A stretch of DNA of 64,000 bases from Blasia pusilla (lineage: Eukaryota), in assembly GCA_050084515.1 (NCBI GenBank), contig CM114271.1, positions 15,748,001 to 15,812,000 of the forward strand. The letters are read 5' to 3'. The notes beneath the pieces were generated by a model. The model was given only the letters and a program-made list of their open reading frames with translations. It did no database searches and had not been told where the DNA came from. Made by a program: the position numbers and the translations under genes. Shown in pieces: positions 1-39,040 of the stretch. Each line of letters opens with the position of its first letter. Position 1 is the first letter of the stretch.

Positions 1-3000
1 CTCCTCCACGCACTGATGCGGCTACTATGACACTCCTCTGCATAGAAATGTCAGGAACGGGAGTATCCTAAGCATAGACTATGCCAAGGACCTCCTGTCG
101 GGTGATATATCTCAATCAAATCACTAGGCCAAGTGATGGCACTGCTAAATGCTGCTAAGGTCAGCATCTCTCCTAGCCTTTGCTCGATCACTCCACCAGT
201 GAATCGAACGGGTAATGAGCTAAGGCGCCCATCAAGACTCTACATCAGTCACTATTGCCTTGGCTCGCACTACGGACTCATCTGTAGGATGTCCCGGGCG
301 AATCCTTGCCACGACCTCCTGTCGGGTGATATACTATGTGGTACTTGCTCCACCCAAGATGTCTATATCCGGAATGGACAATGCTCCATATCGGCTCTCG
401 ACAAGCCCAATCCTCTGAATGACGCTTTCCCCAACATCAAGGGTTTTGCTCCTGAATCCAACAAGATGCGATGCGGACTAAAAGCTCTACCTCCGGGACT
501 CACCAACTAGAAGACCTCTCCCTGGTTATCCAGCAACACAACACTAGGAGAAACCATGGCACGCCCTATCGCGGGTCCAGCCATCCTAGCAACCTAGCGT
601 TGCCATGAATCTGACGTGGATGGCCCGAGCATCCGCTCCAAGGGCAGGTCCATCACCTCCTCTGCAATCACCTCTGAACGTGATGCAGGAACTCCAACTC
701 CACGCTCACATAGCATAGCGGCCAACCGAAAAACCTCGGCGGGTGTACCTCCCAACGTCATAACATTGGAAGCAAAAAATAAAGAAGTGCGATACACAAC
801 GGTGGCCACGCCAACAACATCCTCGACACATGCCCCTCGTAAGCACCAACAATAGAAGTCGTCACACTCGCTTCTCCCATCGCCCTCCGCGCCTGCACAC
901 CAACAACATCACAAACTCTACAGGAACTCTCATCAAGACCCATCGATGGGGTCCTCATCGCTTCGGACAACGTGAAAGACTGAGGAAGCCTAGTCTATTT
1001 CTTGGCTTCCCCTCACTGTGGATCCAACTTTGCGGCTGCTCCACGCGTCACAATTGCGGCGGCCTCCATCTAGGCAACTCCGCATATCCAACCAGGATCC
1101 TCCATATCTCTGGCTGCTCCATATGATGTTGATGCCACGGATCCGGCATCGGGTAACCTCAATGCCATAGCGGCAATCTGCTCCAGTAGTTGCTGTATCT
1201 GAGCAGCCATCCCAGCCTCATGTTTGGCGTCTCCCTCGATGCGTCTAGGTGGTGGGACTCTACCTCCTCCATGGGAAGCTCCACCACTCTGTCGGGCAAC
1301 TCCAGCTCCTCGTCCCCCAACGAGACCACCTGGTGCACGATCTCTAGCCCACCCCGACCGGCTACTCGCTCTGGTGCCATCTTTGGCCCTCGGTCCGGAC
1401 GTAGCTCAGGGTGTAAGCTGAAACACCTGAGACGTGTATGACCATACCTCTAACAATAGTCAAATTGATAACCTCCTGTTCCAGCACTATCTCCTCCTTC
1501 ATGTTGAGGCACACGTCCATGACCTTGATGAATGCAATCGCGCTCATGATGGGCTCCACCACATGACCAACAAGTAATCGTAGGCAGCTGCTGTTGAGCC
1601 GCATATGAAGGTGCAAGTCTCTGTGGCATGGCCTCGTGGTATGCTCCTTGAGCTTCAGGTGCCACAGTCGACCTATCTTGGAGTCCACGTTGCTACATTG
1701 GTGATGCAGAAAATCGTGATTGCTCTCGCCCAGAACCCATGGTGGCTTCACTCTCCTCCGCCATGTTCCGCTCAATGTTCTCGGCGGTCCTTAAAACATC
1801 TCTCAACATAGAGGTGTTCATAAGGAGCACCCCCTCCCGCACCCGTGTCCGCAGGGTCCGATCCAGCATCGCGTACCATGACTGGATAGCCTGAGCCACT
1901 ATCACCCCCTGAGTGACATTGATCAACCGCCGCAAGCCAGTGTAAGCCTTATGCAAACTCTCACCCGGGCGCCTGTGGAAGTCGTGGATGCTCCGCAACT
2001 TCTCCGTCTCACGCTGCAATGTTCGGACTTTGGAGAGGCGTTTAGAAAGGTCTCTTGGAAAAGTCCAAGAGACGAAACAAGGAACATAGTTGTGCATTTC
2101 ATGCATTAGTGGTCGTGACCACAAAACCTAGACCAAATGCGAGCCAAGACTTGAGATGAGTTGAGTCTTGGAAGATCTTGAGACGCTTCCAATGCACAAA
2201 GATCTCAAAAAATGCATAAGTAAAGACTAAGATATTGGCTGAAAACGACTATAAGAGAGCAATCGGAGGGCCAATTGAGGGCCAATTGGAGAGGCCTGAG
2301 TGTCTTTCCCTAAATGTAGGGAATCTCGGAGATCCCCATACGTACTAGTAAGGGAGGAGTTTCTCCACGATGTCTTGGAACACGAATCCCCATTTTGAGC
2401 ACTAAATGGCGTCTTAGAGGCACGGGATGGAATGGGAGTTTGGCATTGGAACTTGAAACCCAAACCTAATCAAAGGGAGTGGACTTTGTACGCCACACTT
2501 GGATTCCAACCCCAGATTCACTTGGTGCGAGTCTCGGTTAGGGACTCATTGGACAATTAGAACCGCCAGGCGCGAAACACCGTTTGAGGTTCCTGAACCG
2601 ACCAGGAAGTTTGTCCCAAGTCTTTCAAGACTTGCCCGTGTTGTAAACCGCGAAACTAGGAAGGTTGAGCTTGATGAGAGATGAGATGAGAGCTCGGAAA
2701 GTTAGCCCGCTCATTGATCCAAGACCCGACTAACCAGAGTGCGTGCTTGGATGCAGATCAGCGTTGAGAGCGTGACCTACTGAACGCACGCTTCCACAAC
2801 AACAAGATTAACATTCAAGGAGAGTAGGCGCACAACACTGGTAGCTTGCCCTCAACTCAGCGAAGAACTCAACCATGGGGTTGAACCTGGGATGAACCCG
2901 ACTAGACGGTGCAACTGCTCTAGTGAGAGTGGCCCTTCCTAAAACATCACTACTGGAAGAGGAAGTAGCCTCTCTTGACTCCTCCTCCTTATCTCGGAAC

Positions 3001-5656
3001 GGCTCCGTCCATGAGACATAGTGTGGGTCATAGTAGAGTTGCCATGCCTCAATCTCCTAGGTATATCAATGAGAGAACTCATGATAATCTTCCATGGGCC
3101 TCCCCTCTAAATGTTGGAACATATCGTTCCATGTTGTAAACGAGTTGAACTCTCTAGAGTTCTTAGCCCGCTGTGAGTCATACCAACTCCTAAACTCTGC
3201 AATGAAGTCGTGTAGCTCTATAGTGCCTACAACACCCGAAAACCTACGCGATCCTCTACCCCGGTCGTCCATCTCGTACGCCCAACTGGTAGGACCACTC
3301 AATGTGTACGGTAGATCACTAACACACTCCTCTATATGCTCCCCTCGTTTGAAGACGACACAGAAGGAGATCGAGGTGGTCTCTCACGTGGAGACCCTCG
3401 AAACCTCGCACCACTCCGGGTAAACCCTCTAGAGCTACTCTTAGGTCCACTACCTCGCCTCTCAAAATCCCAAAAGGACGCCGTAATGCCCTCGTGCCTC
3501 TCTCACACGATCACTCTCAATCTGGTGAGTAATCCCTCAATCACTCAAACTAAACATGCGGCACTCAATCTACACTCTCTCACTGAGACGGTGTTGTGCG
3601 GCAACAAGCACCGTGGTGCGGAAAATCAACCAATCTATTGTCTCATCGAAAAACCATCCTCAACTTTGGACATCCCACACAGGTCTATGTCCCCTAAACC
3701 CATACATCATCGATGCTCCTAGCATCAACACGAAATCCAATATCCCAAATAACTTTCCAATATCAGGAAATTCCTCACACGTGCAGGGTAAGAGACCAGA
3801 ATGGATAACCTGACAATAATGTCGATGTCACTCCTCGGCAACTGCAAATCTTGACCCCAACTCGGTTGTGAAGACAACTTCTCCAATTAGCAAGTCGTAC
3901 TCCTCTCGTACGCACGCTGCTCAAACCTCCTCGATGTGCGGTGCAAGTCCTGCGGTCCAGTGCAGCACTGGCGGCACGGAACGGCTACAAACGGCATGGC
4001 ACTCGGCGGCATACCCTCCTCAATCAGCAATTCACATGCTCTGCACCTTAGTGAAAGGATCGAAGTGAAGGTGGCTCCGCGATTTAGTGAAGGAGTGGCT
4101 GCGAAGCGAGTGCGGTCGCGAGCGCCGGCACGCAATCGGCGGCGCGTTGCGGCTACGGGCATCACGGCATGGTACTGGATCATCATCGAGTGGCTACCAA
4201 TCCCAACATAGCAATATAAAATGAAAACTCAAACATTGTAATCCGAGGTTACCTTCCATCACAGGTTGATGAAGAAACTGCGATGACGGTGGCGGCCAAA
4301 CCAAAGTACGTGGTGGCGGCGCAAGTCAGAGAATCAGCGGTGGTCATCGGAGACCCTCCACTCCGTAATGGCGAAAATGGCAACCAAAGGGTGGACAATG
4401 GCGGAACGCGGCTGTGAGCAGCACTAGGCGATGGCCGCGGGCGACGATGGACCGTGGCCGTTGACGGTGACAGTTGACCGTTGATGGTGACGGATGATGG
4501 TTGATCGTCAATGGTGATGGTTGACCGTCAATGGTGGACCGCTGACGATGACTATGACTATGACGGCCGCCGCTGGCATGGCGGCTGGTTTAGGGTTTGA
4601 ACAATTTAACCCTAAAAATCGCCTAGCAATGGCAGTTTTGCAAGATTGACTATAACTTTCTGCTTGCAACTCCAAATTCTGCACCATTTGTTGCACAACG
4701 TGCACAACTTCATGATCTATGATAGCGTCAAAAATTATTTGGAATCAGACATTTTTGTAAGAACTGACGGGTATTTCCGTAAAGCCCAATTTCTCTTTTA
4801 CTCCTACAAAAAATTTGGCGGCGCTTCCGCGCTGATTTCTCCCAACGAAAATGTAAACATGTGAGAACACAAATCAGCAAGCTGCATGATGCTCCCAAGA
4901 GCACCAGCATGGGGCAATCCTCCCCCATACTAAATCCCTATCCGAAATTGGGCAGCGCTTCCACGCGCCACTCTTCCACACGAAAAATCGGGAAAGGAAA
5001 CATCAGAAGTAAACGGCTCTTGCTGCGGTGAGCACTCCCATGAACCGCTGAAAGGGAAATACGATCCCTTACCTGCAAAACCTGCAAGCGACCAGCAAGC
5101 TCCCCCCTGAAGCCCTCTCACTCACTCATTCTCTCTTTGTAAAATAAGATCCAATCTCTCTCACAACACTACAATTCTCACATGTGTGCACTCTCACATG
5201 TCTCTCTCAATTTCAAACCAAACCCACTCTCCTAAGGAGAGGCTTGGGTTACACACACAAGGCAAACAAGACCATAGCTCCGCCACCTCATGCCAAGAGG
5301 TTCAACAAAGAGAGAATGAGCTCTCAAGCTCTCTCTCCTTGAGGTATACCCCTCCCTCTCCCAAACTCTTTCCATGGTAACCTATGCTCCCAAGTCACCT
5401 CCTTGGCTCTTGACCTGATGTAGGAAGTCAAGGGCCACTTTCCCAAAATATAAAATCAATCATATACTCAAAATGGTACTTACCTAAAATAGTAAGTTCC
5501 TCAATATGGCTCCAAATGAGCTGAAACGAAGGGGAAACCTGCTCTCTCAGGTTTCCCGGGGCCTCAGCAAGTCATCCTCAACCTACTGAGCATGTCCTCC
5601 ACTACTAATGAAGGTGCTCTACTAGATCTCACGGATCTATCATAAAAGACGTGATA
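1..5656 (-). mobile_element. Ty3/Gypsy retrotransposon copy A (5' part: terminal repeat A, leader, gag, protease; runs off the window's left edge just before the DNMT domain), degenerate
   Basis: The reverse complement is collinear with copy B. The 5' terminus at 5656 matches TGTCATGTCTTTTAGGATAGATCC at 13412. The gag knuckle TCWSCGGAHHERDC is in ORF 1450-1665, and the protease motif ILLDSGAKPLM is near 440-470. Bases 1-130 match B 18400-18510. Confidence 0.9.
2015..2837. mobile_element. ~820-bp insertion in gag of copy A, probably an unrelated solo LTR
   Basis: The segment is absent from copy B, where the two flanks are contiguous at ~16405-16420. It can be drawn with TG...CA ends, but boundaries and TSD are ambiguous. 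Confidence 0.6.
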
Positions 5657-8600
5657 CAACAAGCGGCTGGCCATTTCACCCGACCCACTGCTAGTATAAA
5701 GCCTCATCAGTTTCAGGAACTACGAGTCATCATGAAGCTCCCTATCGACATGCTAGTGGATCTGAATTCAGCAAAGGCATCTCATCTTCTTGCTCGACTC
5801 AAAACTGCACGAGAAGACGAAACTATATCTGAAGTACCAGACACCGACTAGCATAGCACTGCCAATGCAATCCATAGTCCACGCAGAGGATCCAATTCTG
5901 GGGTTGCCACATGAAGTAGGTCTAGTTTAGTGCACTTTCAGACAAACAGTGTATCTTTCTATGGCCCACCACTCCCAAAATCTCCCAACAAGCAAAAATG
6001 TACATGATGTTATTAACTCTAGTACAATGTTGCCACCAACCTTCACCATTGTATTCTATTTGCTCTTGTGTATTGCTGCCAATTCTTATTTACCGAGTGT
6101 TATTTATGTTATCCTTGTGATGAGTAGGTACTTTGCTGCTGAGTATCGACTTTAGTGCAATTGGAGCCAGCCACTGAATGTACTAGTCCAATACTCAGTT
6201 CTGCGCATGCCATTCAAACTACCGCATTTAACTATATGTTATAGATCGCAATATTGTGCACATACTAAGTTCTACCAACCTGATAGTTTGTGCCACAGTA
6301 GCATCTTGGCCACTCTATATCTGTACTTTCACTCAGTTACAAGTATAGGTCTACACCAACGCTATATAGCGTGATTTGTGTGTCGGCACTTATGTTTATG
6401 TTATCTCGTGCATATTTTTCAACAACAACATATTTTTCATGTCTGCTGATGCATGTAAAGTTTATTTGTGAGCAAGAATTCATCTTTTCATATGTTTCTC
6501 AAGACATGTGTATTCCACAATAATATAAGCCCGCTTCTGCCAAGTTGTTCACATGTCTGCGTGCAAATGTTTTTGTTTGACAACTCATTTCATTCTGGTT
6601 ATTCAATTCCATACAGTACTGGTTTTGCAACTCTTATAAATATTACATCGTGTTCTTTTTTGTATTGTGTAGAAAAAGAAGCGCGCTGTACTCCTGCAAA
6701 GCAACTTCATGCTTCTGTTAGCAAACAGTGTGGAAGAAGCAAAGTTCCTGCAACTCTGACTTTTGTGGAGCGCGTCAACCATGCTGGAACAAGTCACCTA
6801 CCCACTGTTAGTGTCCAAATACTTGATGAAACTGTTCGTGCCATTGCTACTACTACAACCCAACCTCGCAAGTCTGAGTCACGATACATGGCATTACATG
6901 CTGTGTTAACTAAGCTTGACAACCGAGACTAGGACTACATTGTTGCACTATTAGAGGTGCATCAATGCAGTGATAGCAACGTAGCTAAGCTTCTCAATTT
7001 AAGTGAATATGCTGCTGAAAATTATTTGAAGGGCGCATCTCTTGCTGAGAAGATTTCACAGATGCAAAAACTAATCCAGATGCCAAAACCTACTTAGTTC
7101 ATGGCTCTTACAGTCGTCGCAGGCTCTTTCATGTTGAACGAATGTTTTAGCTAGCTTGTACTGTTCAGACACACCATGTGCCAACCATATACATTATTGG
7201 GAAGTTTTACAATTCTGCCAATATTTGTTTCCAGGATGTTGCTCTAAAGCATGAGCTATTTATGCATATCGTTCACTTAAATACTTCCTACAATGTTCTA
7301 CTATTACTAATTGCTATTGCTTCCCGCGGCTGATTTCTGTCAAATTACGTTTGCATAACCGTTTGTTGTGATTTCTAACTCATAAAGTTATTTCCATATT
7401 CTCCTTTTATCACTTTTCAGTCTACCAACACTACGATTGGGGGTTCCTTGTTACACACCAAACGCACCTTGTTAAGCAGAAATTTAATTTGTTACTATGC
7501 TTACTGAACTCCATTCCGTTTGCCTTGTAGAAGCTATTAGCTTTTTTTCTCTTCCGTTCACACCATAGGTTTGTTATTCACATTCACAACCTTGCATAAT
7601 AAAAAACAAAAAATGTATAGTTATTTCGACAAACTTTCGACCATAAACCCACAACCATCCTAAATTTCTACCACTCCATTTCGCATACTACGCTGTGTTA
7701 CTTACAACACATTACAATCAAGAGCCAAAGTAAATGTTGTCATTGTTACTCTCACCAACAACTTTCTCTCTTAATTACTACAATTATGGCGATATTGCTT
7801 TTATTACATTGCAACATCGTCATACCAATTGAATTACATCTTATGAAAAATGTTTGAAAAATTAAATATACCCAGTGGGAATTAATTATTGATGTTGATA
7901 TAAATTCAAATTTCTTTTCAACGGACTAATAATAACCCGCTGCATAGGAAGTTCGTGAGGAAGTTTGACTCGGATTCAAACAAGCCAAAATCGTAGGGAA
8001 CCTCGTTTAGATAAGCCACTTTCCATCCGCAGTAAAGGTGTGTCTTCATTTTGTGCCGGGTTTCGTTTGGATCTGTCATATGGAGGGCCGGTCAGTAGAG
8101 AGAGGGCTAAGTGTTCTCTAGGTATGTATTCTGTCTTTCGCATTTTCCCACGTTTGCCTTTTCGGCCAAGGCCCACCTCCTCATTTTCGGAAGAATTTGA
8201 TTACGTTTCTCCTGAGACGTTCGGACTTATCTCGTTAGAATTGGTCCCAACATTCAACGGACGAAGTCCAATGGGGACGACAATGATGTGAGATTACAAA
8301 TCTCTGTGTCGATTTGACATTTGAGAACAATGAATAGAGTTTATCAAAGTCTCAGCGGGAATTGAATATCCATACCTGAGTCATATCCACACGGACAAGA
8401 GAAAGAGTAATCAAGCATTTCATGAAAGATAAGCAAAATCGTCGACTTCGTTACGCGTCTATAGCTATAAGTACAATGTCCGCAAGAAGCTGTACCGTTT
8501 GGAAAGAGAGATAATGTCTTAATAGGCCCATCCGCAAAGTGTTGATGTATCCACAACCGGCTCCAGAATTTACATATGAGTATAACACAAATACATCAAA

Positions 8601-12832: not shown

Positions 12833-15759
12833 CTCACAAGGTATTAAGAATTTGGGAAATATCTAAACTTTCATGGAAAAGAAAACTCTCCTTCATAGGA
12901 CTCTTTAAAAAAATATTTGAAATCTAAGTCATAGGGCTCCAGTGGTAAGCTTGTTGAATTTGGATTGTAGATGATAGGCCGGTAAGGGATGCATGTTTTT
13001 CTTTCATTGTCCTCTTAATATTACTCGATTGTAGGAAATCCCAAATTCAAGCTGAGGCTTTTGGATCACTTAACAAAGAGGATGCTACAAAGGACTTGGT
13101 AATTTGTGAAATTTGTTCTTCTACAATAGAAGGAGTGGAGGGAGGGAAAACATCCATCTTCCTTTAAAGCAACTCTCATTATTCAATCTTAGGGAAGAAT
13201 TGTCCCTACAATTGCAAAGAAGAGGAAATGCAAGTTTGATAAGTTAAAAAGTCCTTGTAGGGCATGTGGAGTGTAGTTGCACAAAAATAAAAAGTCCATC
13301 CCTAAGATGGACATGGACGGAAAAGTCTAGGGATGTCCATTAACATGGAGTGTAAGAGGTGTGGCCCACATTTATTGCTCATAGTGGGAGGAAGGACAAG
13401 GGCGTACAAGGTGTCATGTCTTTTAGGATAGATCCGCAAGATCTAGTAGAGCATCTTCGGAGATAGTGGAGGTCAGCCTCAAGAGGTCAAGGATGACCTA
13501 TTGAGGCCACGCGTACTGTGAGAGAGCAGGTTTCCCCTTCGTTTCGGCTCATTTGGAGCCATATAGAGAAACTTACTATTTTGGGTAAGTTTCCATTTAA
13601 AGTATAGTTGACTTTCCACTTTGGGAAGTGTCCCTTGACCCGCTACAGCAGGTCAAGAACCAAGGAGGTGACATGCGAGCATAGAGCTTGGGAGAGGGAA
13701 GGGGGTATACCTCAAGGAAAGAGAGCTTGAGAGCTCATTCTCTCTTTGTTGAACCTCTTGGCATGAGGCGGCGGAGCTATGGTCCCTTGCCTTGTGAGTG
13801 TAACCCAAGCCTCTCATTAGGAGAGTGAGTTTGGTTTGACATTGAGAGAGACATGTGAGAGTGCACACATTTGAGAGCTATGCTGTTGAGAGAGATTGGA
13901 TCCTATTTTACAAAGAGAGAATGAGCTCTCAAGCCCTCTCTCTTGGAGGTATACTCCCTTGATTTACAAAGAAGGATGAGTGAGTGAGAGAGCTTCATGG
14001 GAGAGCTCGCTGGTCACTTGATGTTTTTGCAGGTTGGGATCGTATTTCTTGTTCAGCGGTTCATGGGAGTGCTCATCGGAGCAAGAGCCGCTTACTTTTG
14101 ATGTTTCCTTTGCCGATTTTTCGTGTGGAAGAGACGCGCGGAAGCGCAGCCCAATTTTTTTTATAGGGATTGAGTATGGGGGCAGGTTTCCCCATGGTGG
14201 TGCTCTCGATAGCATCATATAGATTTCTGATTTGTATTTTCAGAGGTTTTACATTTTTGTTGGGAGAAATCAGCGCGGACGTGCTCCCAAATTTTGCGTA
14301 GGAAAAAAAGACATTAGGCTGCACGACAGTCCCGTCAATTTTTGGTGAAAAATAAAATGGAGAAACCAATTTGACAAGGTTGTAGATCAGGAAGTGGTGT
14401 AGGATGCTGAAAAAACAGTGCACAATTTGAAGATTGGAGCATAGAGTTATGATCATTTTTGTTGGGCTGCCATAGTCACCGTTCCAAGATATGAGTGAAA
14501 TTTCAAAAATTTTGGGTAGAAATTCTTTCTTGAGAGGTAGAAAAAAAAATCAGTTTATTGGGTGGATAGGACAATTGAATTCAGCTATTTGGAGGTAGGA
14601 TGAGTAGATCCCATTTTTGGGGGCTGTTGACCCTCAATCTTAGGAGGCATTTGTGATAAGGCATTCAATTTGTAGACCGGTCAGGAAGGAGGTTGCCAAG
14701 TAAGGAAAGATAGTGGGGATCCAATTTTCCCCAGGGGTTATTCTAGTTAAAAAAATTAAAATAAAAAAATTGGCGCGGGACAACTTCTGTCCTACCATGT
14801 CCTAGCCGACTGTCCCGGAGACGCGCAAACCGGCTGTGCACTTGCTACGCCGTTGTATGCTGTGTGGTCCGTCGACACTTCAAGGCCGCTACTTGGTTGT
14901 CGGACTTCCTAGTGCAGAAAAAATTCTGAGCCGCCGTGCAACTGTGCATTGCTCTGTCCGACCCTATGTTACTGCTACCTCTAGAGCCAAGCGTCTAAAT
15001 CTCTATCCCAGACTGCCGCGGCTATCTATGTTTGTGGCCGACCGTTCCGTCCGCTTTGTTATGCCGTGATTTGTAGCCGCTCAAGGACGATCGAGTACCG
15101 TGCCGTGACGTCTATAGCCACAACGTGCCTCCGCTTGTGCCCGCACCGCACCGTCTCGATCACCGAGCCGCACCATCACTAGAGAGCACAATGTGTATTG
15201 CTGTTGAGGAGGGTATACTACTGAGAGCTGCACCCTATTATCGAGTGCCGTGTTGTTTGTAGCCGTTCCGTGCCGCGAGTGCCACACCATACGGTTGGAC
15301 CCGCACCGCACATGGAGGAGATTTGAGTATCGTCAATACCAGAGGAGTACACAACTTGCTCCTTAGAGGAGTTGTCTTCACAACCGAGTTGAGGTCGAGG
15401 TTTTTCAATTGCTGAGGCGTAACATCGACACTTGTTGTCGGGTTACCCATTTAGGTCTTTTGCCTTGCATGTGTTAGGGATTTCCAGGTATTGGGCAATT
15501 ATTTGGGATGTTGGGTTTCGTGTTGATGTTAAGAGCATCATTGATGTATGGGTTAGGGGACATAGACCTATGTGGGATGTCTAGAGCTCAGGGTGTGTCT
15601 TATCGATGAGATGATAGGACAGTAGACGATTTGCTACACCACGCCGCTTGTTGCCGCACAACACACGTCTTAGTGAGAGAGTGTGGATTTAGTGTCGTCT
15701 GTTTAGTTGAGTGATTACTTGTGAGGTCGAGAGTAATCGTGTGAGGGGGGCACAAGGAT

Positions 15760-18700
15760 CATCACGGCGTCCTTTTGGGACTTTGAGCGGCGAGGTGGTG
15801 GACCTGAGAGTAGCTCTAGAGGGTTGATCCGGATTGGTGCAAGGTTTTGAGAGTCTCCATGTGAGAGACCACCTCGATCTCTTTCTGTGTCGTCTTCAAA
15901 CAAGGGGGAGAGTATAGAGGAGTGTGCTAATGATCCACCTTATACATTGAGTGGTCCTAAGAGTTGGGCGTACGAGATGGACGACCGAGATAGAGGACCT
16001 GGTAGGTTTTTGGATGCTATAGGCACTACAGAGCTACACGACTTCATCGTGGAGTTTAGGAGTTGGTATGACTCACAACGGGCTAGGAACTCCAGAGAGT
16101 TCAACCGGCTTACAGCATGGAACGGAATGTTCTAGCACTTAGAGGGAGCACCCATGGACGATTACCATAAGTTCTTGCAGAGATATACCCATGAGATTGA
16201 GGCCTGGAGACTCTACTATGACCCACACTATGTGTCATGGACTGAGACGTTTCCCGATGAGGAGGAGGAGTCAAGAGAGGCTTCTTCCTCTTTCGTGAGT
16301 GATGTGGTAGGAGGGATGACTCGCACTAGAGCAGTTGCACCGTCTAGTCAGGTCCGTCCCAAGTTCAACCCCGTGGTTGAGTTCTTTGCGGAGTTGAGGA
16401 CGGGCTACCAAGGGTACGGACGGAGAAGTTGCGGAGCATCCACGACTTCCAGAGGCACCCAGGTGAGAGTTTGCATAAGGCCTATACCCGCTTGCACAGG
16501 TTGATTAATGTCACTTAGGAGGCGATAGAGGCTCAGACTATCCAGTCATGATACGCGATGCTAGACTAGACCCTGCGGACACGGGTGAGGGAGGGGGTGC
16601 TTCTTATGAACACCTCCCCTATGTTGAGAGGTGTTTTAGGACCGCCAAGAACATTGAGCGGAACATGGCGGAGGAGACCGTAGCCACCATGGGTTTAAGG
16701 CTAGAGCAATCACGATTGCCTGCACCACGAGTGCATCAACGTGGATTCCGAGATAGGTATGAGGCACCACAAGCTTAGGGAGGATATCGGGAGACCCTGC
16801 CATAGAGACGTGCTCCTTCATATGCGGCTCAGCAGCAGCCCCCTATGATTATTTGTTGGTCATGTGGTGAAGCCCATCATCAACGCGATTGCACTCGTCA
16901 GGGTCATGGACGCGTGCCTCTCCACGGAGGAGGAGATGATGCTACACCAAGAGGTTATCAGTGTGACTATTGTCAAAGGTACACTTACACATGCGTTAGG
17001 TGTTTCAGATTGCACCTTGATTTTCGTCCGGACCGAGAGCCAGAGAGCACACTAGAGCGAGTTGCAGGTCCGGGTGGGCCTAGAGGTGGTGCATCAGAAG
17101 GCCCCGTTGGGTGACGAGGAGTTGGATTCGCCCAAGGGGGTGGTGGAGTTTCCCGTGGAGGAGGTAGAGTCCCACCACCTAGACACGTCGAGGGAAACGC
17201 CGGACGTGAGGCTTGGATAGCTGCTCAGATACAGCAACTACAATAGTAGATTGCAACTATGGCATTGAGGTTACCCGATGCCGGATCCGTGGCATCGACG
17301 TCTTATGGAGCTACCAGAGATATGGAGGATCTTGGTTGGATGTGGGGGGTTGCCCAAATATAATTCATCATAGTTGTTACACGTGGAGCAGTCGTAGAGT
17401 TGGATCCACACCAAGGAGGAGCCAGGAAATAGATCAGGCTTTCTCAATCCTTCACGTTGTCTGAGGCGATGAGAACCCCATCGATGGGTCCTGATCAGAG
17501 TTCCCAGAGAGTGGGTGATGTTGTTGGTGTGCAAGCACGAAGGGCGATGGGAGAAGCAAGTGCGACGACTCCTATTGTTGATGCTAAGGAGGAGCATGTG
17601 TCGAGCACGTTGTTGGGGGCGGCCATTGTTGTGTACCGCGCTCCTTTATTTTCTGCTTCCGATGTTATGACTTTGGGAGGTACGTCCGCTGAGGTTTTTT
17701 GGCTGGCCGCTATGCTTTGTGAGCGTGGAGTTGGAGTTCTTGCATCACGTTTAGAGGTGATTGCAGAGGAGGTGATGGATCTGCCCTTGGAGCTGATGTT
17801 TGGGCCATCCACGTCAGATTCATGGTAGGCTGCAGCTGCTAGGATGGCGGAGATGCCCACTAGACCCGCGATAGAGCGTGCCATGGCTTCTCCTGGTGTT
17901 GTTTTGCTGGATAACTGGGGGAGGAGGTCTTCCATATGGTGAGTCCATGAGGTAGAGCTTTTAGTCCGCAGCGCGTCTTGTTGGATTCAGGAGCACAATC
18001 CCTGATGTTGGGGAAAGCGACATCAAGAGGTTTGGGCCTGATAAGAGGCAATGTGGAGCGTTGTCCATTCCAGATACAAACATCCTTGGGTGGACTGAGT
18101 ACCACACAGTATATTACCCGACAGGAGATTGTGGTGAGGATTCGCCTAGGACATCCTATAGATGAGTCCGTGGTGCGAGCGAAGGCGATAGTGATTGATG
18201 GAGAGTCCTACGACGTCTTGGTTGGTAGAGCTGTGTTGTACCCAATGGAGTTTTCCCTGGATTATTGGGAGGAGTCAGCGTCCTACAGAAAAGGATGGCA
18301 TTCAAGTGATGGGCAACTTAGCTCATTACCCGATTGATTCCCAAGTGCACTGATCGAGCACCGGCCAGGAGAGATGGCGACCTTAGTAGCATTTAGCAAC
18401 GCCATCACTTGGCCTAGTGATTTGATTGAGGGACACGTCCATGTAGAGGACACTCCTGTTCCTGAAATTTCTATGGAGAGGAGTGTCATGGTAGCCCCAT
18501 CAGTCCATGGAGGAGATATGCCGCTTTGGGGCTCGATTGAGGAGTTTCGACACTTAGCCATTGACCATGTGGAGACCGCATGGAGGGAGACGTTTACACC
18601 AGAGCGTGACGGGTCAGAGGAACCCAAGGTAGCCGAGAGTGCTATGATGACCCCTTTGGACACCACCCCAATTGTATGGTGCATCCTAGAGGAGGATATT

Positions 18701-21700
18701 CGGGTGTTGAATCTCTTTGGAGGGATCATCACTGGGTTAGCTATTTTTTTGCAGGCAGAAGTACGCGTGCAGCAGTACCTATATGTGGAGATTGATGATG
18801 TTGCGAGGCACACTTCACTTCACCATGTGGCACAGTTATGCCTCCGTTTTCCCAACTTGTTGTCTGCGCCCCCTGTCCAGGGATACTAGAGTTTCCTACC
18901 GAGGGATATTTTATTGTGGGGGGCGCAGTACTTGGAGCGGGTAGAAACCATAGACTTGGTCATTGCTGATTGGCCATGTCAAGGCCACTCGAATGCTAGA
19001 TGGAGTAGCAGATTAGTTGACTCGCGGTCCTTGTTGTTATGGGGGATGATGCGGATCTTGCGATATTCATAGGAGCATTAGTCTCGTTCTCCAGCATACA
19101 TTCTAGAGAATGTGTCGCTTTTGGGCGATTCGAGGTCCCGCGTGGTGACGAGTGCACATCAGGTGCGTGCATGGATAGGCCCGGAAGTGTTGTTGGATGC
19201 GGCAAGTATAGGTTCACGAGCACATTGCCCGCGTCTTTGGTGGACCAACTTGGTGCCACATGAGGTTTTGCGAAGGGCGCATGCGAGAGTGGAGCGTCCC
19301 TTCCATTTGTTGGTGGATTCTATTGTGGATGCACATCGTCGATCACACACAGTGAGGTACGATGATCAACCGCCATTGGCTATGGTCAATAGGATTGGCA
19401 TGCCGCGAGCAGACTTTCCCACATTGGTGAGTTTTCCCGCTTCCTATGCATTCAAGAAGGCCGCGCCAGGCTTGGTTTGGGATGACTAGGTGCAGCGGTT
19501 GGTAGAACCCAACACTGATAAGGGAGAGCGAGTGATGGGATTCCCCACAGGAGTGACGGCAATATCATCACTATCAGAGGCATCACAACGTCATGTCTTT
19601 GGTCACGCAATGGACCTGAACTTCTTGACATGGATTTTCAGCTTAGGAGTAGTTGAGAAATGTCGTTTGAGGTTGCAACAGATTACAGCTGTTGCGTTTG
19701 TGAGCCCCATGCCTACCAAGATGGTTGAGGAAGTGGCTAGGGATGAGACGCGAGGAGATCGACACACCAAGGATGATTGGGAGAGACACCCTTGGACTTC
19801 TTGGGATTTTTTGCAGGTAGGCCAGGAGATGGTAGCCACAACATTGAGCGTGGTTCCGAGTACTGCATATAAAGATGAGATTTTGCAGTTAGCTGCAGGA
19901 GAGCAGTCGAGTTCTGTTTCCCGAGACAGGGTTGCACCATAGCAGCCACCTATACCCGCGCCCGAGAGTCCTACCTTAGTCACAATGGAGACTTGGGAGC
20001 GAGACATGGGCTCTAAGTTGACAGGAGGAGAGCGGCGCCAAATACATCAATTCCTAAGGAGTTATAGGAGTTGTTTTTCATTTAGCATGCAAGAATGGGG
20101 TAAGCTGAAGGGTCTAGGGATCCGCATTGAGTTGTCGAGTGACACGCTGATCTTCCGACGATCCTACAGGTACAACGACATGGAGAAGGCTCTGATTCAG
20201 AGTAGGAGCCAAGACTTGGTTGGAGCAAGACTAGTGGAGATGTCGCATGGAGAGTATGCATCTGCCACTGTCATGCCCGCCAAGAAGGATGTGCATGGAA
20301 ACTGGACAGATAGGCGGATGTGTGGAGATTACAGACCTATTAATCGGTAGACAAAGTCCGATAGGTATGCCATGCTCACCCCTTAGGAGATCTTTGATGC
20401 CATTGGGTATGCAAAGGTCTTCAATTCATTGGATTTGCGAGCCAGATACCATCAGCTTCTTATTAGATTGGAGGACATGCAGAAGAGGGTATTTTGGGGC
20501 ATCGATTCTCATGAGAAGGATTATTTGTACCAATGACGGTTCTTACCATTCAGGTTAAAGAACATCCTGGTTGAGTTTCAGAGGGTTATGGATAGGATCT
20601 TGGCAGGTTTGGATTTTGCTAGGTGTTATATTGATGACATCGTAGTCTTTAGCGCCACGGTTCAGGAGCATGAGCGACATCTAGAGGAGGTGTTCCGATG
20701 ATTGCAGTGACATGGGCTAAAGCTACATTCAAGAAAGTGCAAATTCTTCTACAACCAGATTGAGAACTTGGGTCATACGATATACCTAGAGGGCCTTGGG
20801 TGCAGGAGACAAAGGTAGAGGCTATTTCACGCATTCCACGCCCTACAGATGTGAGTATAGTTCGTGCATTCATGGGATTGGCGAACTTCTATAGACGGTG
20901 CGTCAAGGATTTCAGTTTGATTTCGAAGCCGCTAACCTTGTTGACCAAGGTGGATCAAGAGTGGCACTGGGGGGATGAGGAGGAGAGAGCATTTCAGCTG
21001 CTCAAGGATAAATTGACGTCCGCGCCCATATTGAAGAGACCGATCAGGGGGGATCCTTTCTAGTTGCATATTTATTGGAGCATGTAGGGCTTGGAGTTGT
21101 GCTCCTCCAAGATGATGATGATGGTAGAGAGCTCGTGGTGGAGTCACTTGAACAACGCTGTAGAGGCAAAGTATGGCTCGTATGAGGGTGAGTGCTTGGC
21201 TGCCATGTGGGCTGTCGTACATTTAAGGTGTTATTTATTCGGAGTCCCCTTGACCATCATTACTGATCATCAGCCATTTAAGTGGTTGATGGAGTCCGAC
21301 AAGCTTACAGGGAAGCTTGCGAGGTGGGCTCTTTTATTGCAAGAGTATAACTTCCAGGTGGTGCAAGACCTGGGATGCTCAACCAGGATCTAGATGGTTT
21401 GAGCCGTAAGCCATGCCTGAGTGAGCGAGATGCAAGGGTTTAGGGTTGATGAGGAGTTGGCATGGTGAGAGTGATGAGGATTTGGTGCTAGGATGGCACG
21501 CGTCAACCTATTTGGGTTTGTTGGCTATGGAGAGCCAAATTTCTGAGACTTCGATGGCGAGGTCTAATGGAGAGTCCTTAGATCCAGAGGCCAGTGAGGA
21601 AACGACAAGTGGCCGAGATATTCATGACGATGGAGTGGTCTTGGAGTACCTGCGTACTGGTATGCGTCGCAAGCACAATGGGTGCTAGACAACGGGATCG

Positions 21701-22320
21701 GATCCTAAAGCAAGCGAGACGGTTCCGGTGGGAGAGGACACATGTGTTGCGAGTTTGGGAGGATGGTAGAGTGCGTGTAGTGCCTCATCCTTTGTAGAGA
21801 GCACATTTGATGTGTCATGCCCTCGAGGAGTTGGGTCATTTTGGAGTGAAGCGGATATACAACCTGCTCCAAATACATTATTAGTGATGAGGCATGCAAA
21901 CTAACGTTCAGCAGTTTGTTGCCACGTGCATGGTGTAATCGGGTCCGAGCATCGTTCAATGCTCGACTCCACAGTTGCATCCACTTCCAATCATGGGTTT
22001 AGGTTATAGATGGAGTTTGGATTTTGCAGGACCTTTGCCTTTGATAGAGTGCCATAGTTGTTAAGTGTTGGTGATGGTCGAGCACTTCTCGAAGTGATAG
22101 AGTTCGTTGCATTGCGTGACAAAGCAAGTGAGGGAGTAGCGTATGCCTTTCTAGATTGACAGTTAAGTCATTACGGCACATCAACTCGACTGACCAATGT
22201 ACAGAGTTTCGCGGGGAGTTTCAGGCCTTGTGTGATCAGACACTAATTGACCACCGCATCACTTGGACAGATTGACGACCGTACCACTTGGACAGATTTG
22301 GCGAGATCATCCTAATTCTG
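15760..22320 (+). pseudogene. gag-pol polyprotein of copy B (multiple stops and frameshifts; integrase C-terminus/PHD deleted)
   Basis: ORF fragments from 15887 to ~22260 reconstruct the Gypsy domain order with an extra methyltransferase. Homology to copy C breaks after the DHRTT..DHP motif (~22260-22310). Confidence 0.9.
18698..19650 (+). pseudogene. DNMT3-like C5 cytosine DNA methyltransferase domain inside the retrotransposon pol (copy B)
   Basis: In-frame motifs, reading through stops: I IRVLNLFGGI; II YVEID; IV IDLVIADWPCQGHS (PCQ at 18974-18982); VI YILENV; VIII LDAASIGSRAHCPRLWWTN; IX-X ERVMGFPTGVT...RHVFGHAMD. Confidence 0.9.
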
Positions 22321-22633
22321 ACTTGTGTCTATGACATGGATGACAAGAAGGCGACTAACGATGGGGCCACATGAGCACCCAAACTTTCTGCTCTTAGCGT
22401 CCGAGAGATGTATGTCATGGTAGGTAGGGATAGATGGCTATCTGGAGTTAGAGGGACCTAACCACCAGCTAGGGGGCCGATTGGAGATATTTTGGTACTT
22501 CTCGTCTCGTTGTTTGGATGCCATGAGTTAGCATGGGATCGTGCGTATTTATGTGTATGTTTGGTGACAACGATGTATATTGTATTGCGATGTGTATGCG
22601 CACGATAATGATTTTTAGTTCAACTTAAGTGGG

Positions 22634-30840: not shown

Positions 30841-30943
<103 letters not shown>

Positions 30944-32035: not shown

Positions 32036-32537
32036 GATGGTTACAGGTTGTTGCCTCTCGTTTGGAGGTGATTGTTGAGGAGGTGGTGGACCTACCCTTG
32101 AAGCATGTGCTCGGGATGTCCTTCACATAGTCATGGTATGTTGCAGCAGAAAAGTTGGTAGATATCCTAGCTAGGCCAGCAATAGGGTATAAGAGTGAGA
32201 GAGATGGCTTTCTCAAGCCATCTTTCTCATGTTAAGCCATAGGAACCCCTCTTTTCCATAGACGTATGTGAGTGTGTAGGAGTTAGGGTGCTAGCATCCG
32301 GATTTCCTCATAGTAGAGGATGGATGTGGTTCGATATGCCGATGCAGATTCAAGAGTGGAGTTTTAGGCCGGGTGAGCCAATTTTACTAATCTGATTTTG
32401 TTATGGGGTCTCAATGTATATGTGTGAGTTTGTTTGGTTTATGGATGGATCGACCCGTGTGTTGGGAAGATCGGTGTTGTGTGGTGTGTAGATATGACCA
32501 TCAATGTGGTTGTGTAGCAATGTGTATACGCACGACA
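32036..32537 (+). mobile_element. Internally deleted fragment of the DNMT-Gypsy family (gag-pol scrap plus partial A and complete B repeat)
   Basis: 32036-32185 matches B ~17745-17880. 32195-32537 matches the reverse complement of copy C's A and B repeats and ends TGTGTATACGCACGACA. Confidence 0.8.
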
Positions 32538-33900: not shown

Positions 33901-33985
33901 GATGGACTTAAAGAGCGTCAAAGGATGCCTTAATTTTCTAGATAATTTGATTTGGTGAAAATTCTTAGAGATAAGCTCTTGAAGT

Positions 33986-34123
33986 TGTCGTGCGCATACA
34001 TATCGCTACACAACATACATCGCTGGACACATCTCCACCACACAACACCGATCTTCCCCACACACGGGTCGATCCACACATGTACAAAAATCAACGCATA
34101 CATATACATGGAGATCATACAAC
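33986..34123 (-). repeat. Terminal repeat B2 of copy C (138 bp)
   Basis: Direct repeat of 34606-34743 with about 11 mismatches. Confidence 0.9.
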
Positions 34124-34603
34124 AAAAATAAAGAGTAGTAAAAATGGCACACCCGGCCTAAAACTCCACTCCTCAATCTACATCGGCATATCGAGCCTCG
34201 TCCATCCTGTGCTATCAAGAAATCCGGACGCTAGCACCCTAGTCCTATCTCATACACATACAAGAGAGGTGCTCCAACGGCCCAACATGAGAAAGATGGC
34301 TTAGGAAAGCCATCTTCCTCTCTTATATAGGGTTGGGAAGAGCCAAAAGGCTCTTCCCCCAAAAATAGCCCTCCCCTTGGTAACCTACGCGCACAGGTTA
34401 CCAAGGGCGGGTGACCTTGGCAACAAGTCACCTGGATGTGAAAGACCTCAACATGAAAGTTGTCGGAAATGACATTCTTGACACAATGGACCTATCCTCA
34501 ACCTCACCCGAAACCATGGGATAAAGTTACACTCAAGATAGTCGGCTGGCTCCTACGCCCTATCCACGATAGATCTCAGCCTATCGGCTACTCAGATGTG
34601 ATA
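34124..34603 (-). repeat. Repeat A2 of copy C (~480 bp)
   Basis: Direct repeat of 43285-43758. Confidence 0.9.
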
Positions 34604-34605
34604 GC

Positions 34606-34743
34606 TGTCGTGCGCATACACATCGCTACACAACATACATCCCTGGTCATATCTACACCACAAAACACCAATCTTCCCCACACACAGGTCGATCCACACA
34701 TGTACAAAAATCAACTCATACACATACATGGAGATCACACAAC
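34606..34743 (-). repeat. Repeat B1 of copy C, immediately downstream of the purine tract
   Basis: On the minus strand it follows CCAGCTAGGGGGGCA (34744-34758) and matches B2. Confidence 0.9.
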
Positions 34744-34819
34744 TGCCCCCCTAGCTGGCAGTTGGATCCTTCCAACTCCAGATAGAAAATATCATATCTC
34801 TATGACATGACCTACTACC

Positions 34820-34966
34820 CTATACACATCTCAGACACATCCATCGTCCCGTGGGAACCACATCACGAAGGAGGGTCAGACATGACATATGCCACCCTGG
34901 AGAAAAACCATCACATACCAACATGGTGGCTGCATCCCTCGCAAATCCGCACAACATACATCTCAA
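34820..34966 (-). other. PHD finger (C4-H-C3) at the integrase C-terminus of copy C
   Basis: RCMLCGFARDAATMLVCDGFSPGWHMSCLTLLRDVVPTGRWMCLRCV matches PHD spacing (one Cys mutated to Phe), including the MLxCDxC..xH..C and P.G.W.C..C hallmarks. Confidence 0.85.
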
Positions 34967-37900: not shown

Positions 37901-38189
37901 CGGAGAGGACGCAACCTCCGGCTTTGGTTGCTATGTAGCAACCCTAGCCACCTCCGCAACAGCCACTCCACTCTGATCTCCTACACCATGCTCCACATCC
38001 AAAAAAATGAACATGTACTACTCTGGCCGCCTTGGCACTCTCTACTCGAACGACGTCCCAAGAAGTCCATGGGTGCCTATCTCTCCTCGCCTACCAATGC
38101 CTGACCAATGCACTGTCAGACCACTGAGGCAATGGTCTAACTCGTGGACATGACGGCGTGGATGACACTTGCATCCGTCTCTACTCAGG

Positions 38190-39040
38190 CTGACTATCCA
38201 CGTGAGACAGTTGAGGTCCATCGCATGCCCCAACACCTATCTCTGGGATGCCTCACTAATCCCTGACACCGCCGTAGTACCGGTAGCAAATCCCATGGCG
38301 GGCTTGCGCTCATCTGCTGTAGGCTCCTCCAATGCTCCGGTCACCTCATCCCAAATCATGCATGGCCCTCCTTGACGAAAGGCATGGGATGCTGGGAAGC
38401 TCACCAACGTAGGTAAGGCTGCCCTCAACTCCCCCACCCTATTGGCCATGGCCAACGGTGGTCTATCATCCCGTGTCACCACGTGAGATTGTCGCCTTGA
38501 GCCCAAAATAGCATCCACTATGAGATGTGGTGCTCTGTGGACTCCATCGTATGCTCGACTCAGTACCTCTGATGGTATCAGGTTCGTCCACCACAGTCGT
38601 GGATGATGGGCACGTGATCCAACTCTCGCCGCATCTAGCAACACAGTAGGTCCCAACCAGGATCTCACTTGATGCACACTCGTCATCACACGTGCACAAG
38701 TGTCTCCCAATAATGGCACGTTCTCTAAAATGTACGTTGGAGAACATGTCTGACTCTCCTGCAAGTGTCATACTACTCGCAGCATCTCCCAAAACATCCC
38801 TGACCTTGGATCCTGCAATCCAAATCCTTGGCCAGCTGATGAATGACCCTAACATGGCCATCCAGAAATCACCAAATGAATGGTGCCAACTCTATCCAGA
38901 TCCTACACCGCCACCAAAGAGATGTCGGCAGGTAGTGTATGCTGATATCCCCATACTGGAGATATCGGCAACAACTCAGGATACCTCTGGACCAATCTCG
39001 CCGGTGCTAATCCCTCCGAAGAGATCTAACACCCTAACAC
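38190..39040 (-). pseudogene. DNMT3-like C5 cytosine methyltransferase domain of copy C
   Basis: VRVLDLFGGISTG; IHLVISGWPC*GHSSAG..GLQDPRSGMFWE (GWPC at 38852-38863); YILENV; LDAARVGSRAHHPRLWWTN; ERKPAMGFATGTT..LGHAMD. About 100 bp covering motif II is deleted. Confidence 0.9.

Follow-up and report, generated by a model that had tools for sequence, protein, structure and literature searches.

The stretch of Blasia pusilla DNA analysed here, a 64,000-nucleotide segment of contig CM114271.1 (the window, to which all positions refer), carries at 18692-19639 on the plus strand a DNMT3-type C5 cytosine methyltransferase domain that is in frame with the protease (PR) and reverse transcriptase (RT) of a Ty3/Gypsy element. 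We regard the identification of this domain as DNMT3-type, within a dead Ty3/Gypsy Pol, as close to certain. The element (copy A) and the motifs of its methyltransferase, the latter all in one frame, are laid out as follows.

13411..22608 (+): copy A, a degenerate Gypsy-DNMT3 element, delimited by homology to copy B from 13411 and to copy C until 22263
16854..16895 (+): gag zinc knuckle CX2CX4HX4C, read directly from ORF 16806-17114
17951..18337 (+): aspartic protease with DSG motif; weak Pfam matches, 58% identity to copy C
18692..19639 (+): DNMT3-type domain, motifs I-X in canonical order, pseudogene; Pfam, phmmer, family profile, AlphaFold2/Foldseek
18713-18724 (+): LFGG motif
18788-18796 (+): E-I-D motif
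18971-18985 (+): WPCQG motif
19106-19114 (+): ENV motif
19196-19249 (+): DA..G..H..R.WWTN motif
19526-19546 (+): ER.MGFP motif
19601-19615 (+): GHAMD motif
20312..20782 (+): reverse transcriptase in the DNMT frame, with 4 in-frame stops; PF00078, E 2.7e-18, 66.8 bits
21088..21393 (+): RNase H; PF17917, E 4.4e-20
21458..22263 (+): 5' part of the integrase, frameshifted; tblastn pieces 50-80% identical to the copy C integrase, changing frames

Pfam matches on copies A and C, together with the zinc knuckle read from the copy A open reading frame, give the order zinc-knuckle gag, PR, RT, RNase H, integrase, which bears out the Gypsy assignment made in a first-pass annotation of this DNA. Relatives have PF00098 in the corresponding position. 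The protease matches of copy A (gag-asp_proteas, Asp_protease_2 and RVP_2; E 0.002-0.005) all fall under the Pfam cut-offs, and its identity to the copy C protease extends across 121 aa; the RT match was obtained on a read-through translation of 19943-20815. The methyltransferase shares its frame with both the PR ORF at 17951-18337 and RT, as that annotation had held in placing it between the two. In the family as a whole, Pol has the layout gag(zinc knuckle)-protease-DNMT3-type methyltransferase-RT-RNase H-integrase(-PHD finger). Copy A itself is truncated in its 3' part, lacking the integrase C-terminus and the terminal repeats; a B-type repeat remnant persists at 22571-22605, and a search within the window found no paired terminal repeats left.

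The C5-methyltransferase motifs noted earlier were all recovered, and motifs I, IV, VI, VIII, IX and X follow one another in canonical, non-permuted order. PF00145, which had been proposed as a check, matched significantly (22.5 bits against a cut-off of 22, E 9e-5) when the query was a read-through with X at the stop positions. In alignments to solved structures, the domain is collinear with DNMT3A residues 7-173 and 239-277, and a phmmer search of such structures returned DNMT3A/B/C in 29 of the 30 matches at E<=1 (best 9.8e-6). A 30-domain family profile searched against the same kind of target gave E-values of 1.3e-24 for DNMT3A, 2.9e-13 for DRM, 3.7e-8 for M.HhaI and about 1e-4 for DNMT2, with no row for DNMT1 or CMT at E<=1. 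An AlphaFold2 model of the copy A domain (pLDDT 90.4, pTM 0.91) was matched by Foldseek to DNMT3A/B/C in all of the best 50 listed (top E 3.3e-18, TM 0.80 by target). Judged from these sequence comparisons and the predicted fold, the domain is of the DNMT3 class, not of the DRM, DNMT1 or bacterial type; of the DNMT3/DRM likeness originally proposed, the DNMT3 half stands on the profile and Foldseek results, and the DRM half gives way to the profile difference. Plant DRM enzymes differ in being circularly permuted, so that the N-half of the family profile alone aligns, to the C-half of DRM chains. Cellular DNMT3A/B/C share with the domain the fold, the motif order and an A-H-R-x-R...W-x-N stretch, but their PWWP/ADD reader domains are absent from the element's chain and identity in structural alignment is 17-19%.

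Four in-frame TAG stops, which went unmentioned in the first-pass annotation, interrupt the copy A domain (at 18887, 19070, 19079 and 19487), and the PR-DNMT-RT stretch 17951-20815 holds 11 in-frame stops (7 TAG, 4 TGA) and zero frameshifts. Conserved residues have changed as well: the Gly ahead of motif IV, the first of the motif VIII arginines and the motif IX Arg. Because of these stops and lost residues, copy A cannot make the enzyme: it is dead, a pseudogene of a DNMT3-class member.

Further copies of the family, and a fragment, lie elsewhere in the window.

1..5657 (-): copy B, of the subfamily of copy A; 76-84% nt identity to A
32052..32537 (+): C-type third element fragment, internally deleted; a PR-region piece fused to an A-repeat end, then a B repeat
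33983..43756 (-): copy C, a divergent second Gypsy-DNMT3 element with gag, PR, DNMT, RT, RNase H, integrase, PHD finger and terminal repeats
33983..34743 (-): copy C, 3'-terminal part, B1-A2-B2 in element-strand order; from repeat comparison and junction sequences
34743-34603, 34601-34124 and 34123-33983 (-): repeats B1, A2 and B2, respectively, at the copy C 3' end
34826..34960 (-): PHD finger after the copy C integrase; PF00628, E 1.7e-5, 25.2 bits (cut-off 24)
38186..39095 (-): copy C DNMT domain; 57% aa identity to copy A
43285..43756 (-): repeat A1 at the 5' end of copy C; 91.8% identity to A2 over 478 nt

Copy B is cut by the window start, just short of its DNMT domain. In copy C, the DNMT domain suffers a frameshift or deletion behind motif I, contains 4 in-frame stops (one within motif IV) and has lost a conserved motif VIII Arg; both copies with a DNMT region in the window (A and C) are pseudogenes, so the window offers no example of an open DNMT frame from this genome. 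The 205 aa around the copy C PHD finger are 40% identical, without gaps, to a relative (P0011; E 2e-46). In place of two identical LTRs with TG...CA ends, copy C has the layout A1...B1-A2-B2, in which A1 and A2 are separated by a K2P distance of 0.074 and B1 and B2 are 91.5% identical across 141 nt. TCAC opens its A repeat and a T run closes it, a G-rich, polypurine-like run is found immediately upstream of B1 and not before A2, and inspection by eye revealed no canonical primer binding site after A1. The same A-B 3' end recurs in the fragment, at 32188-32537. Judged against a figure legend in PMC5890265, these terminal repeats are DIRS-like (split direct). An AP2-like host gene is closest to liverwort genes, those of Calypogeia and Riccia.

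Public protein representatives match the domain in large numbers: E-value limits of 1e-3, 1e-10 and 1e-30 leave 1010, 520 and 111 of them, respectively, with many polyproteins of 1000-3400 aa. The named relatives come from Marchantia, Calypogeia, Sphagnum, Closterium, Klebsormidium and Scenedesmus, and annotations of Marchantia polymorpha include at least 16 protein clusters. A survey of the 112 relatives with a full-length domain found the catalytic Cys kept in 111, the Glu and Asn of the ENV motif in 112 and 107, the motif VIII Arg pair in 110 and 111, and the motif IX Arg-Glu in 105 and 110; the motif I glycine is among the residues kept in 110-112. The DNMT3-specific stretch after motif VIII, A-H-R-x-R-x-(F/Y/W)-W-x-N, is likewise kept. 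Between copies A and C, 267 DNMT codons gave pN 0.242 and pS 0.729, a ratio not above that of the integrase (0.182/0.600) or of RT-RNase H (0.219/0.517), although the measure is rough because synonymous sites are saturated (pS ~0.7), and some of the RT pieces compared overlapped in wrong frames. On these sequence comparisons, the DNMT domain is a family feature under constraint and not a one-off capture.

In whole-genome reads of the host, 42,778 reads fell on 17900-20400 at >=80% likeness, from 12.4 million reads (~1% of the run), and only 10 of them were >=99% alike; the copy number of the family in the host is roughly in the thousands. Three RNA runs placed 1534, 1320 and 1715 reads on the segment, covering all 30 bins, and the first mate was almost always on the minus strand, so that the RNA is strand-specific; the strand convention of the library is an assumption. 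At 19079, the only stop position among the positions listed, a sense-codon letter was present in 1075 of 1299 DNA reads and in 38/38, 40/43 and 41/42 RNA reads. The family is thus abundant and transcribed in its host, the RNA reads being a record of transcription and not of translation or packaging.

The transposon-borne DNMTs of Klebsormidium (de Mendoza et al., 2018) had been named as a precedent from the outset, and a kinship with them is supported by the K. nitens protein GAQ93235.1 (P0136), a candidate KnitGypsy-Dnmt3 copy, which matches the domain at E 6.8e-29 with 29% identity and has the zinc knuckle-PR-DNMT order of the window element. In a 114-row DNMT tree, GAQ93235.1 and the window lie on the 30-row side of a split with 96% SH-aLRT, and in a 52-row tree it is on the 40-row side with the window (support 99/94), both trees being without a cellular DNMT3 outgroup. 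Since it has the same order and tree side as the K. nitens protein, we class the element as a land-plant representative of KnitGypsy-Dnmt3 as presented in the consulted portion of PMC5890265; what marks that kind, a DNMT3-type domain in a Gypsy Pol ORF common to several copies, is present here, and the sequences point to an ancestry of the DNMT domain shared with that of the Klebsormidium elements. According to that portion of the paper, the two also share a non-rearranged domain inside the Pol of a Gypsy element, DIRS-like repeats (per the legend, which the copy C layout fits) and purifying selection (Ka/Ks<0.2 there, pN/pS ~0.33 here) (PMC5890265). They differ in host, a charophyte there and a land plant here, and in number, few copies being stressed for K. 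nitens in the text available and very many being present here (PMC5890265). The order Klebsormidium, Closterium, bryophytes in the 52-row tree suggests long persistence, not recent capture.

A second Gypsy group, represented by the Scenedesmus 'pol' KAF8056149.1 and many environmental contigs, has the order RT-RNase H-DNMT-integrase-PHD; we found no description of it in the literature searched. Its DNMT domains and those of the present family are mutual nearest relatives and an integrase C-terminus with a PHD finger is common to both (40% identity over 205 aa, E 2e-46), but the methyltransferase stands between RNase H and integrase there and between PR and RT here, and the two orders need one change on the 114-row tree (64 and 8 rows of known order). 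Chromoviruses, Gypsy elements too, likewise carry a chromatin reader of their own, but what follows their integrase is a chromodomain where this family has a PHD finger. SymbioDIRS-Dnmt3 of Symbiodinium also has a DNMT3-type domain within a retrotransposon Pol, but it is of the DIRS type, has a tyrosine recombinase and resides in dinoflagellates; the available part of the paper treats it as an independent acquisition (PMC5890265). Its domains established de novo CG methylation in yeast and are, as far as that part goes, the only such domains so shown (PMC5890265). The 'EpiLTR'/DAM-LTR retrotransposons, as described in the accessible part of a preprint, likewise carry their own DNA methyltransferases, which are of a DNMT4-sister or adenine type and not of the DNMT3 type found here (bioRxiv 10.64898/2026.05.21.726589).

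Taken as a whole, the locus is probably best explained as a dead Gypsy-DNMT3 copy of the KnitGypsy-Dnmt3 kind in a land-plant host, intact members of which would methylate their own DNA. In such members, the domain would be translated as part of Pol, act as a SAM-dependent C5 methyltransferase and ride with RT and integrase in the particle, where it could methylate the newly made DNA of the element, or else DNA at the new insertion, such that a new copy would arrive pre-marked like host heterochromatin; the PHD finger of the integrase may guide integration by reading histone tails. Like the first-pass annotation, we infer both that the enzyme is packaged and that new cDNA is methylated, and the self-methylation mechanism, which rests on comparative analysis, is advanced tentatively, at somewhat under an even chance. 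The de novo CG methylation by SymbioDIRS-Dnmt3 domains in yeast serves as its precedent. Points against this explanation include the yeast result given below for the Klebsormidium domain, the unusual motif X (G-x-x-M-D-x-N instead of the usual G-N/R-S type) and the Glu that replaces Pro ahead of the catalytic Cys in 53 of the 112 relatives.

DNMT2 methylates tRNA, and the domain might similarly act on another target: on element RNA, stabilising it or marking it for packaging, or in trans, where chromatin of the host or competing transposons would be methylated and host silencing manipulated. We consider this unlikely. Conserved catalytic residues speak for retained catalysis but leave the substrate undefined, and with thousands of copies and steady RNA in the host a leaked enzyme could reach host DNA; set against this, the nearest matches of the domain are enzymes that act on DNA, DNMT3A/B/C (1.3e-24 by profile, 3.3e-18 by structure), DNMT2 scores about 1e-4, and the DNMT3-specific stretch is kept. 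RNA methylation was raised for a LINE-borne DNMT in the part of PMC5890265 at hand, which also reports that the Klebsormidium domain produced no DNA methylation in yeast, a result its authors call inconclusive because human DNMT3B failed too (PMC5890265). The same yeast result would suit a domain that serves Pol without catalysis, for instance as a scaffold binding DNA or SAM, but in that role there would be no need to retain, as 110-112 of 112 relatives do, the catalytic Cys, the Glu of ENV, the arginines of motif VIII and the glycine of motif I, and we think it quite improbable. That a host DNMT3 fragment landed once at a single Gypsy copy, or that a domesticated gene sits amid transposon debris, is refuted and has next to no probability left. 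No evidence for it was found, and PR, DNMT and RT share one frame; the domain recurs in copy C, where its neighbours have diverged about as much, and in hundreds of relatives among public proteins, with the same order in those from Klebsormidium, Closterium and Marchantia; family domains match one another at E 1e-28 to 1e-81 against ~1e-5 to host-type DNMT3; and ~43,000 genomic reads fall on the segment from 1% of a run.

The literature searched contains no description of Gypsy-DNMT3 elements in land plants. The earlier remark that they are not known to have been characterised there holds in that sense, but related sequences already sit unremarked in Marchantia, Calypogeia and Sphagnum annotations. 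What is new is the description and not the sequence data. It is conceivable, if slightly less than an even bet, that the element is no Klebsormidium oddity and that all belong to one ancient green-lineage Gypsy family, marked by split repeats, a PHD finger on the integrase and a methyltransferase of DNMT3 type, whose methyltransferase shifted once within Pol (between RNase H/integrase and protease/RT, in either direction) and which passed from charophytes (Klebsormidium, Closterium) to land (liverworts, Sphagnum), with thousands of copies in a liverwort-like plant still giving rise to transcripts. Transposon copies can also swell the tally of 'DNMT3 genes' in bryophyte genomes. It has been a puzzle since 2018 that a transposon should bear the enzyme by which its hosts silence transposons. 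Symbiodinium and Klebsormidium, the hosts known for such elements, do not lend themselves to manipulation, whereas Marchantia polymorpha is a genetically tractable model; the abundance and transcription of the element in the present host and the M. polymorpha clusters open the question to tests with methylomes and natural intact domains. If the enzyme works, part of the transposon methylation of bryophytes, Marchantia included, would be written by the transposons themselves.

In the degenerate Ty3/Gypsy element designated copy A (13411-22608, +), the stretch 18338-19942 (+) is a single reading frame that, with X at the stops, translates into a 535-residue protein (P0001). The first-pass annotation had claimed a DNMT3-like methyltransferase between the protease and reverse transcriptase (RT) of a Gypsy Pol, and this placement is borne out: all of its motifs are present in P0001 in canonical order (18713-19615), the PF00145 search it had suggested gives a match on the read-through that is barely over threshold (22.5 bits against a cut-off of 22, E 9e-5; Pfam), and the frame is identical to that of the upstream protease ORF (17951-18337, with weak aspartic protease matches) and is shared by the downstream RT (PF00078, E 2.7e-18). 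A gag zinc knuckle lies upstream of the domain, and an RNase H (PF17917, 4.4e-20) followed by a frameshifted integrase lies downstream. Single-frame read-throughs of 17436-18337 and 21458-22264 were without a Pfam match because both stretches change frame, and a SpeFL match in the RT linker, under its cut-off, was taken as chance. Protein Atlas assigned the domain to a generic methylase cluster.

The enzyme class was approached by searching solved structures. With P0001 as the query, DNMT3A, 3B or 3C made up 29 of the 30 matches at E<=1, the best of which (9.8e-6) was collinear with DNMT3A residues 7-173 and 239-277. A profile built from 30 family domains matched DNMT3A at 1.3e-24 and DNMT3C/3B at about 1e-22; DRM followed at 2.9e-13 to 2e-9, through the N-terminal half of the profile only, aligned to the C-terminal half of DRM, as expected because DRM is permuted, and M.HhaI (3.7e-8) and DNMT2 (about 1e-4) ranked lower. 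The domain of copy A, modelled with AlphaFold2 (X at stops, 30-row alignment), reached a pLDDT of 90.4 and a pTM of 0.91, and in a Foldseek search with this model all of the best 50 matches were DNMT3A/B/C (best 3.3e-18, TM 0.80 on the target). The domain is DNMT3-type, a class call that rests on profile and fold ranking.

When 1.84 billion representative proteins were searched exhaustively with HMMER, 1010 matched at E<=1e-3, of which 520 reached <=1e-10 and 111 reached <=1e-30; many of the matches are polyproteins of 1000-3400 residues, and cellular DNMT3 ranks far lower than the 150 matches listed. Ten representatives, from the side with the order RT-RNase H-DNMT-integrase, are environmental sequences, in addition to the following.

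Named public relatives
Calypogeia fissa: 4 clusters, up to 60% identity
Marchantia polymorpha: 16 clusters at 90% identity, 45-58% identity
Sphagnum: three species
Closterium: five representatives
Klebsormidium nitens: GAQ93235.1
Scenedesmus: a 'pol' protein

Of the 112 relatives whose domain is full-length, 111 retain the catalytic Cys; the Glu and Asn of the ENV motif are retained in 112 and 107, the two motif VIII arginines in 110 and 111, and the Arg and Glu of motif IX in 105 and 110, respectively. Two traits of these relatives are unusual for C5 methyltransferases: the motif IV residue before the catalytic Cys is Glu in 53 and Pro in 51 of the 112, and motif X reads G-x-x-M-D-x-N.

Copy A itself is dead. 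Between 17951 and 20815 it contains 11 in-frame stops (7 TAG, 4 TGA), four of them in the methyltransferase domain, and zero frameshifts. Three residues that relatives keep almost without exception are substituted, namely the Gly preceding motif IV, the first of the two motif VIII arginines and the motif IX Arg. In gag, RNase H and integrase the frame changes several times, and the C-terminal end of the integrase is absent. When same-species reads were compared over 17900-20400, the family had G/C where the window has A/T at 102 + 74 differing positions and the reverse at 41 + 35, with 133 transversions, an excess indicating that copy A decayed mainly via C-to-T type transitions. The 19 window-private transitions readable among the positions listed (5 CG, 2 CHG, 12 CHH) are too few to assign a methylation context, and the CpG observed/expected ratio of 0.66-0.79 in the copies versus 0.83 around the host gene is not a decisive difference. 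No paired LTRs were found for copy A within the window; an 85-nt match between 11605-11689 and 22521-22605 was rejected as a direct repeat, its orientation being inverted. The truncated 3' end of copy A is directly followed, at 22626-23233, by inverted repeats and by tandem ones (about 270-290 nt, 89-99% identical) that are unrelated to the element.

Two further elements of the family lie in the window, and one of them, copy C, retains its ends.

Copies B and C and the terminal features of copy C
1-5657 (-): copy B, 76-84% nucleotide identity to copy A; truncated by the window edge immediately ahead of the DNMT domain
33983-43756 (-): copy C, a diverged subfamily with 72% nucleotide identity to copy A in RT and 57% amino acid identity in DNMT
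43756-43285 (-): terminal repeat A1, 5' end of copy C in element-strand order
34826-34960 (-): PHD finger after the integrase (PF00628, 1.7e-5)
34743-34603 (-): terminal repeat B1, after the internal region
34601-34124 (-): terminal repeat A2, between B1 and B2
34123-33983 (-): terminal repeat B2, 3' end of copy C

Copy C has the domain order of copy A together with a complete integrase that ends in the PHD finger, and its DNMT breaks fall at other places than those of copy A. Between A and C, pN and pS were 0.242 and 0.729 in the DNMT (267 codons), 0.182/0.600 in integrase, 0.219/0.517 in RT-RNase H and 0.311/0.683 in protease plus linker; since synonymous sites are saturated, the comparison says only that the methyltransferase appears constrained about as strongly as the essential Pol enzymes.

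The ends of copy C are split direct repeats (A1...B1-A2-B2) of the DIRS/Ngaro type rather than ordinary LTRs, yet a DDE integrase is present; the A repeat neither starts with TG nor ends with CA. A1 and A2 are 91.8% identical (K2P 0.074) and B1 and B2 91.5%, a G-rich run stands directly ahead of B1, and the same A-B junction terminates a deleted fragment (32052-32537; A-B part 32188-32537). This arrangement fits the figure legend for KnitGypsy-Dnmt3, the DNMT3-bearing Gypsy element of K. nitens, whose repeats are described as 'the same as that of a DIRS retrotransposon' (PMC5890265). Near copy A, the segment 11603-12161 consists of an inverted B-type repeat and then sequence akin (partly inverted) to the 5' end of A and B, and probably marks the end of another element, which would face copy A head to head. 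The PHD finger of copy C occupies the post-integrase place where chromoviruses carry a chromodomain. Both DNMT-order groups have the element backbone in common: the last 205 residues of the integrase, including this finger, are 40% identical, gapless, to a protein of the RT-RNase H-DNMT-integrase type (E 2e-46).

According to de Mendoza et al. (2018; PMC5890265), KnitGypsy-Dnmt3 has an intronless, non-rearranged DNMT3 within a Gypsy Pol with Ka/Ks<0.2. The K. nitens protein GAQ93235.1 shares with copy A the order zinc knuckle, protease, DNMT; a Closterium protein continues this order into RT, two environmental proteins show it in full through integrase, and a Marchantia protein reads DNMT-RT-RNase H. 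The DNMT tree of 114 rows is split by a single branch (SH-aLRT 96) into a 30-row side, comprising the window copies, bryophytes, Closterium and Klebsormidium, with DNMT before RT in 6/6 public rows of known order, and an 84-row side including Scenedesmus, with RT-RNase H-DNMT-integrase in 64/64 rows of known order, in most of which a PHD finger comes next. With the window copies included, a single change of DNMT position is needed on this tree. The large sister group with the order RT-RNase H-DNMT-integrase-PHD includes the public proteins P0011, P0019, P0031 and P0034, among others, and comes from Scenedesmus and environmental contigs. In a 52-row tree rooted on the RT-RNase H-DNMT-integrase side, a Klebsormidium group comes first, followed by Closterium together with environmental rows (82/87), two more environmental rows (99/97) and finally a bryophyte clade (100/100). 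Within this clade A pairs with C (94/95), and the Marchantia rows form a single group (100/100). Sphagnum joins Marchantia rather than falling outside the liverworts, so the fit to host phylogeny is imperfect.

The family is abundant and transcribed in this host. Raw same-species reads were mapped to 17900-20400 at a likeness of at least 80%; in a whole-genome sample of 12.4 million reads (about 1% of the run), 42,778 matched, of which 10 did so at >=99%, 204 at 95-99%, 5102 at 90-95% and 37,462 below 90%. If those 10 are copy A's own, the copy number is on the order of thousands, a rough figure given so small an own-read count and the many reads that fit in part. Three RNA runs contributed 1534, 1320 and 1715 reads, with all 30 bins from protease to RT covered and a depth of 7.6-195 where the first mate maps to the minus strand versus 0-19 on the plus strand; under the usual stranded chemistry this bias indicates sense transcripts, and it excludes contamination by DNA. 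With few exceptions the RNA reads are less than 95% alike to copy A and therefore derive from other copies. An index of sequencing runs listed no RNA run containing the sequence, and the RNA evidence comes from the mapped raw reads. At the single stop position among the 40 differing positions listed, a sense-codon letter occurs in 1075/1299 DNA reads and almost all RNA reads.

Elsewhere in the window lie a host gene and an unrelated Gypsy element.

Other features of the window
56606-57442 and 59239-59643 (-): exons of an AP2/ANT-like transcription factor gene of the host; best matches in Calypogeia (53%), followed by two Riccia species (43-44%) and, lower down, ferns and Selaginella, which makes the host a land plant closest to liverworts among the database entries; Protein Atlas gives 'Streptophyta' only
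28582-29115 (-) and 30234-30542 (-): unrelated Gypsy element; its RT ORF is of the ordinary plant type, and it also has a gag-like ORF
about 30850-30960: long GA/CT microsatellite adjoining that element

This kind of element is already known, and the Blasia family is a member in a new host group. No description of a land-plant Gypsy element with a DNMT, or of the RNase H-DNMT-integrase-PHD sister group or the single move of DNMT, was found in the literature searched, although the supplementary tables of PMC5890265 and PMC12344493 may list such copies, including bryophyte ones; the only wording in the available text of PMC12344493 is 'as previously reported in streptophytes'.

The domain would methylate newly made DNA of its own element, either inside the particle or upon integration; self-methylation of this sort was proposed by de Mendoza et al. 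(PMC5890265), in whose yeast assay methylation by KnitGypsy-Dnmt3 went undetected, a result the authors judged inconclusive. Action on RNA or in trans, instead of on the element's own DNA, is an unlikely alternative that still carries some weight. Retention for a non-catalytic role is considerably less probable, as the conserved catalytic residues argue against it. Capture of the segment by a single Gypsy copy, which the first-pass annotation had named as the case that would undo its claim, is refuted by the DNMT of copy C and the many public relatives, and its probability is practically nil. What the sequences establish is a DNMT3-type domain in frame with Pol, its catalytic residues kept across hundreds of diverged elements; self-methylation would be the use to which these elements put it, and the integrase PHD finger may steer their integration.
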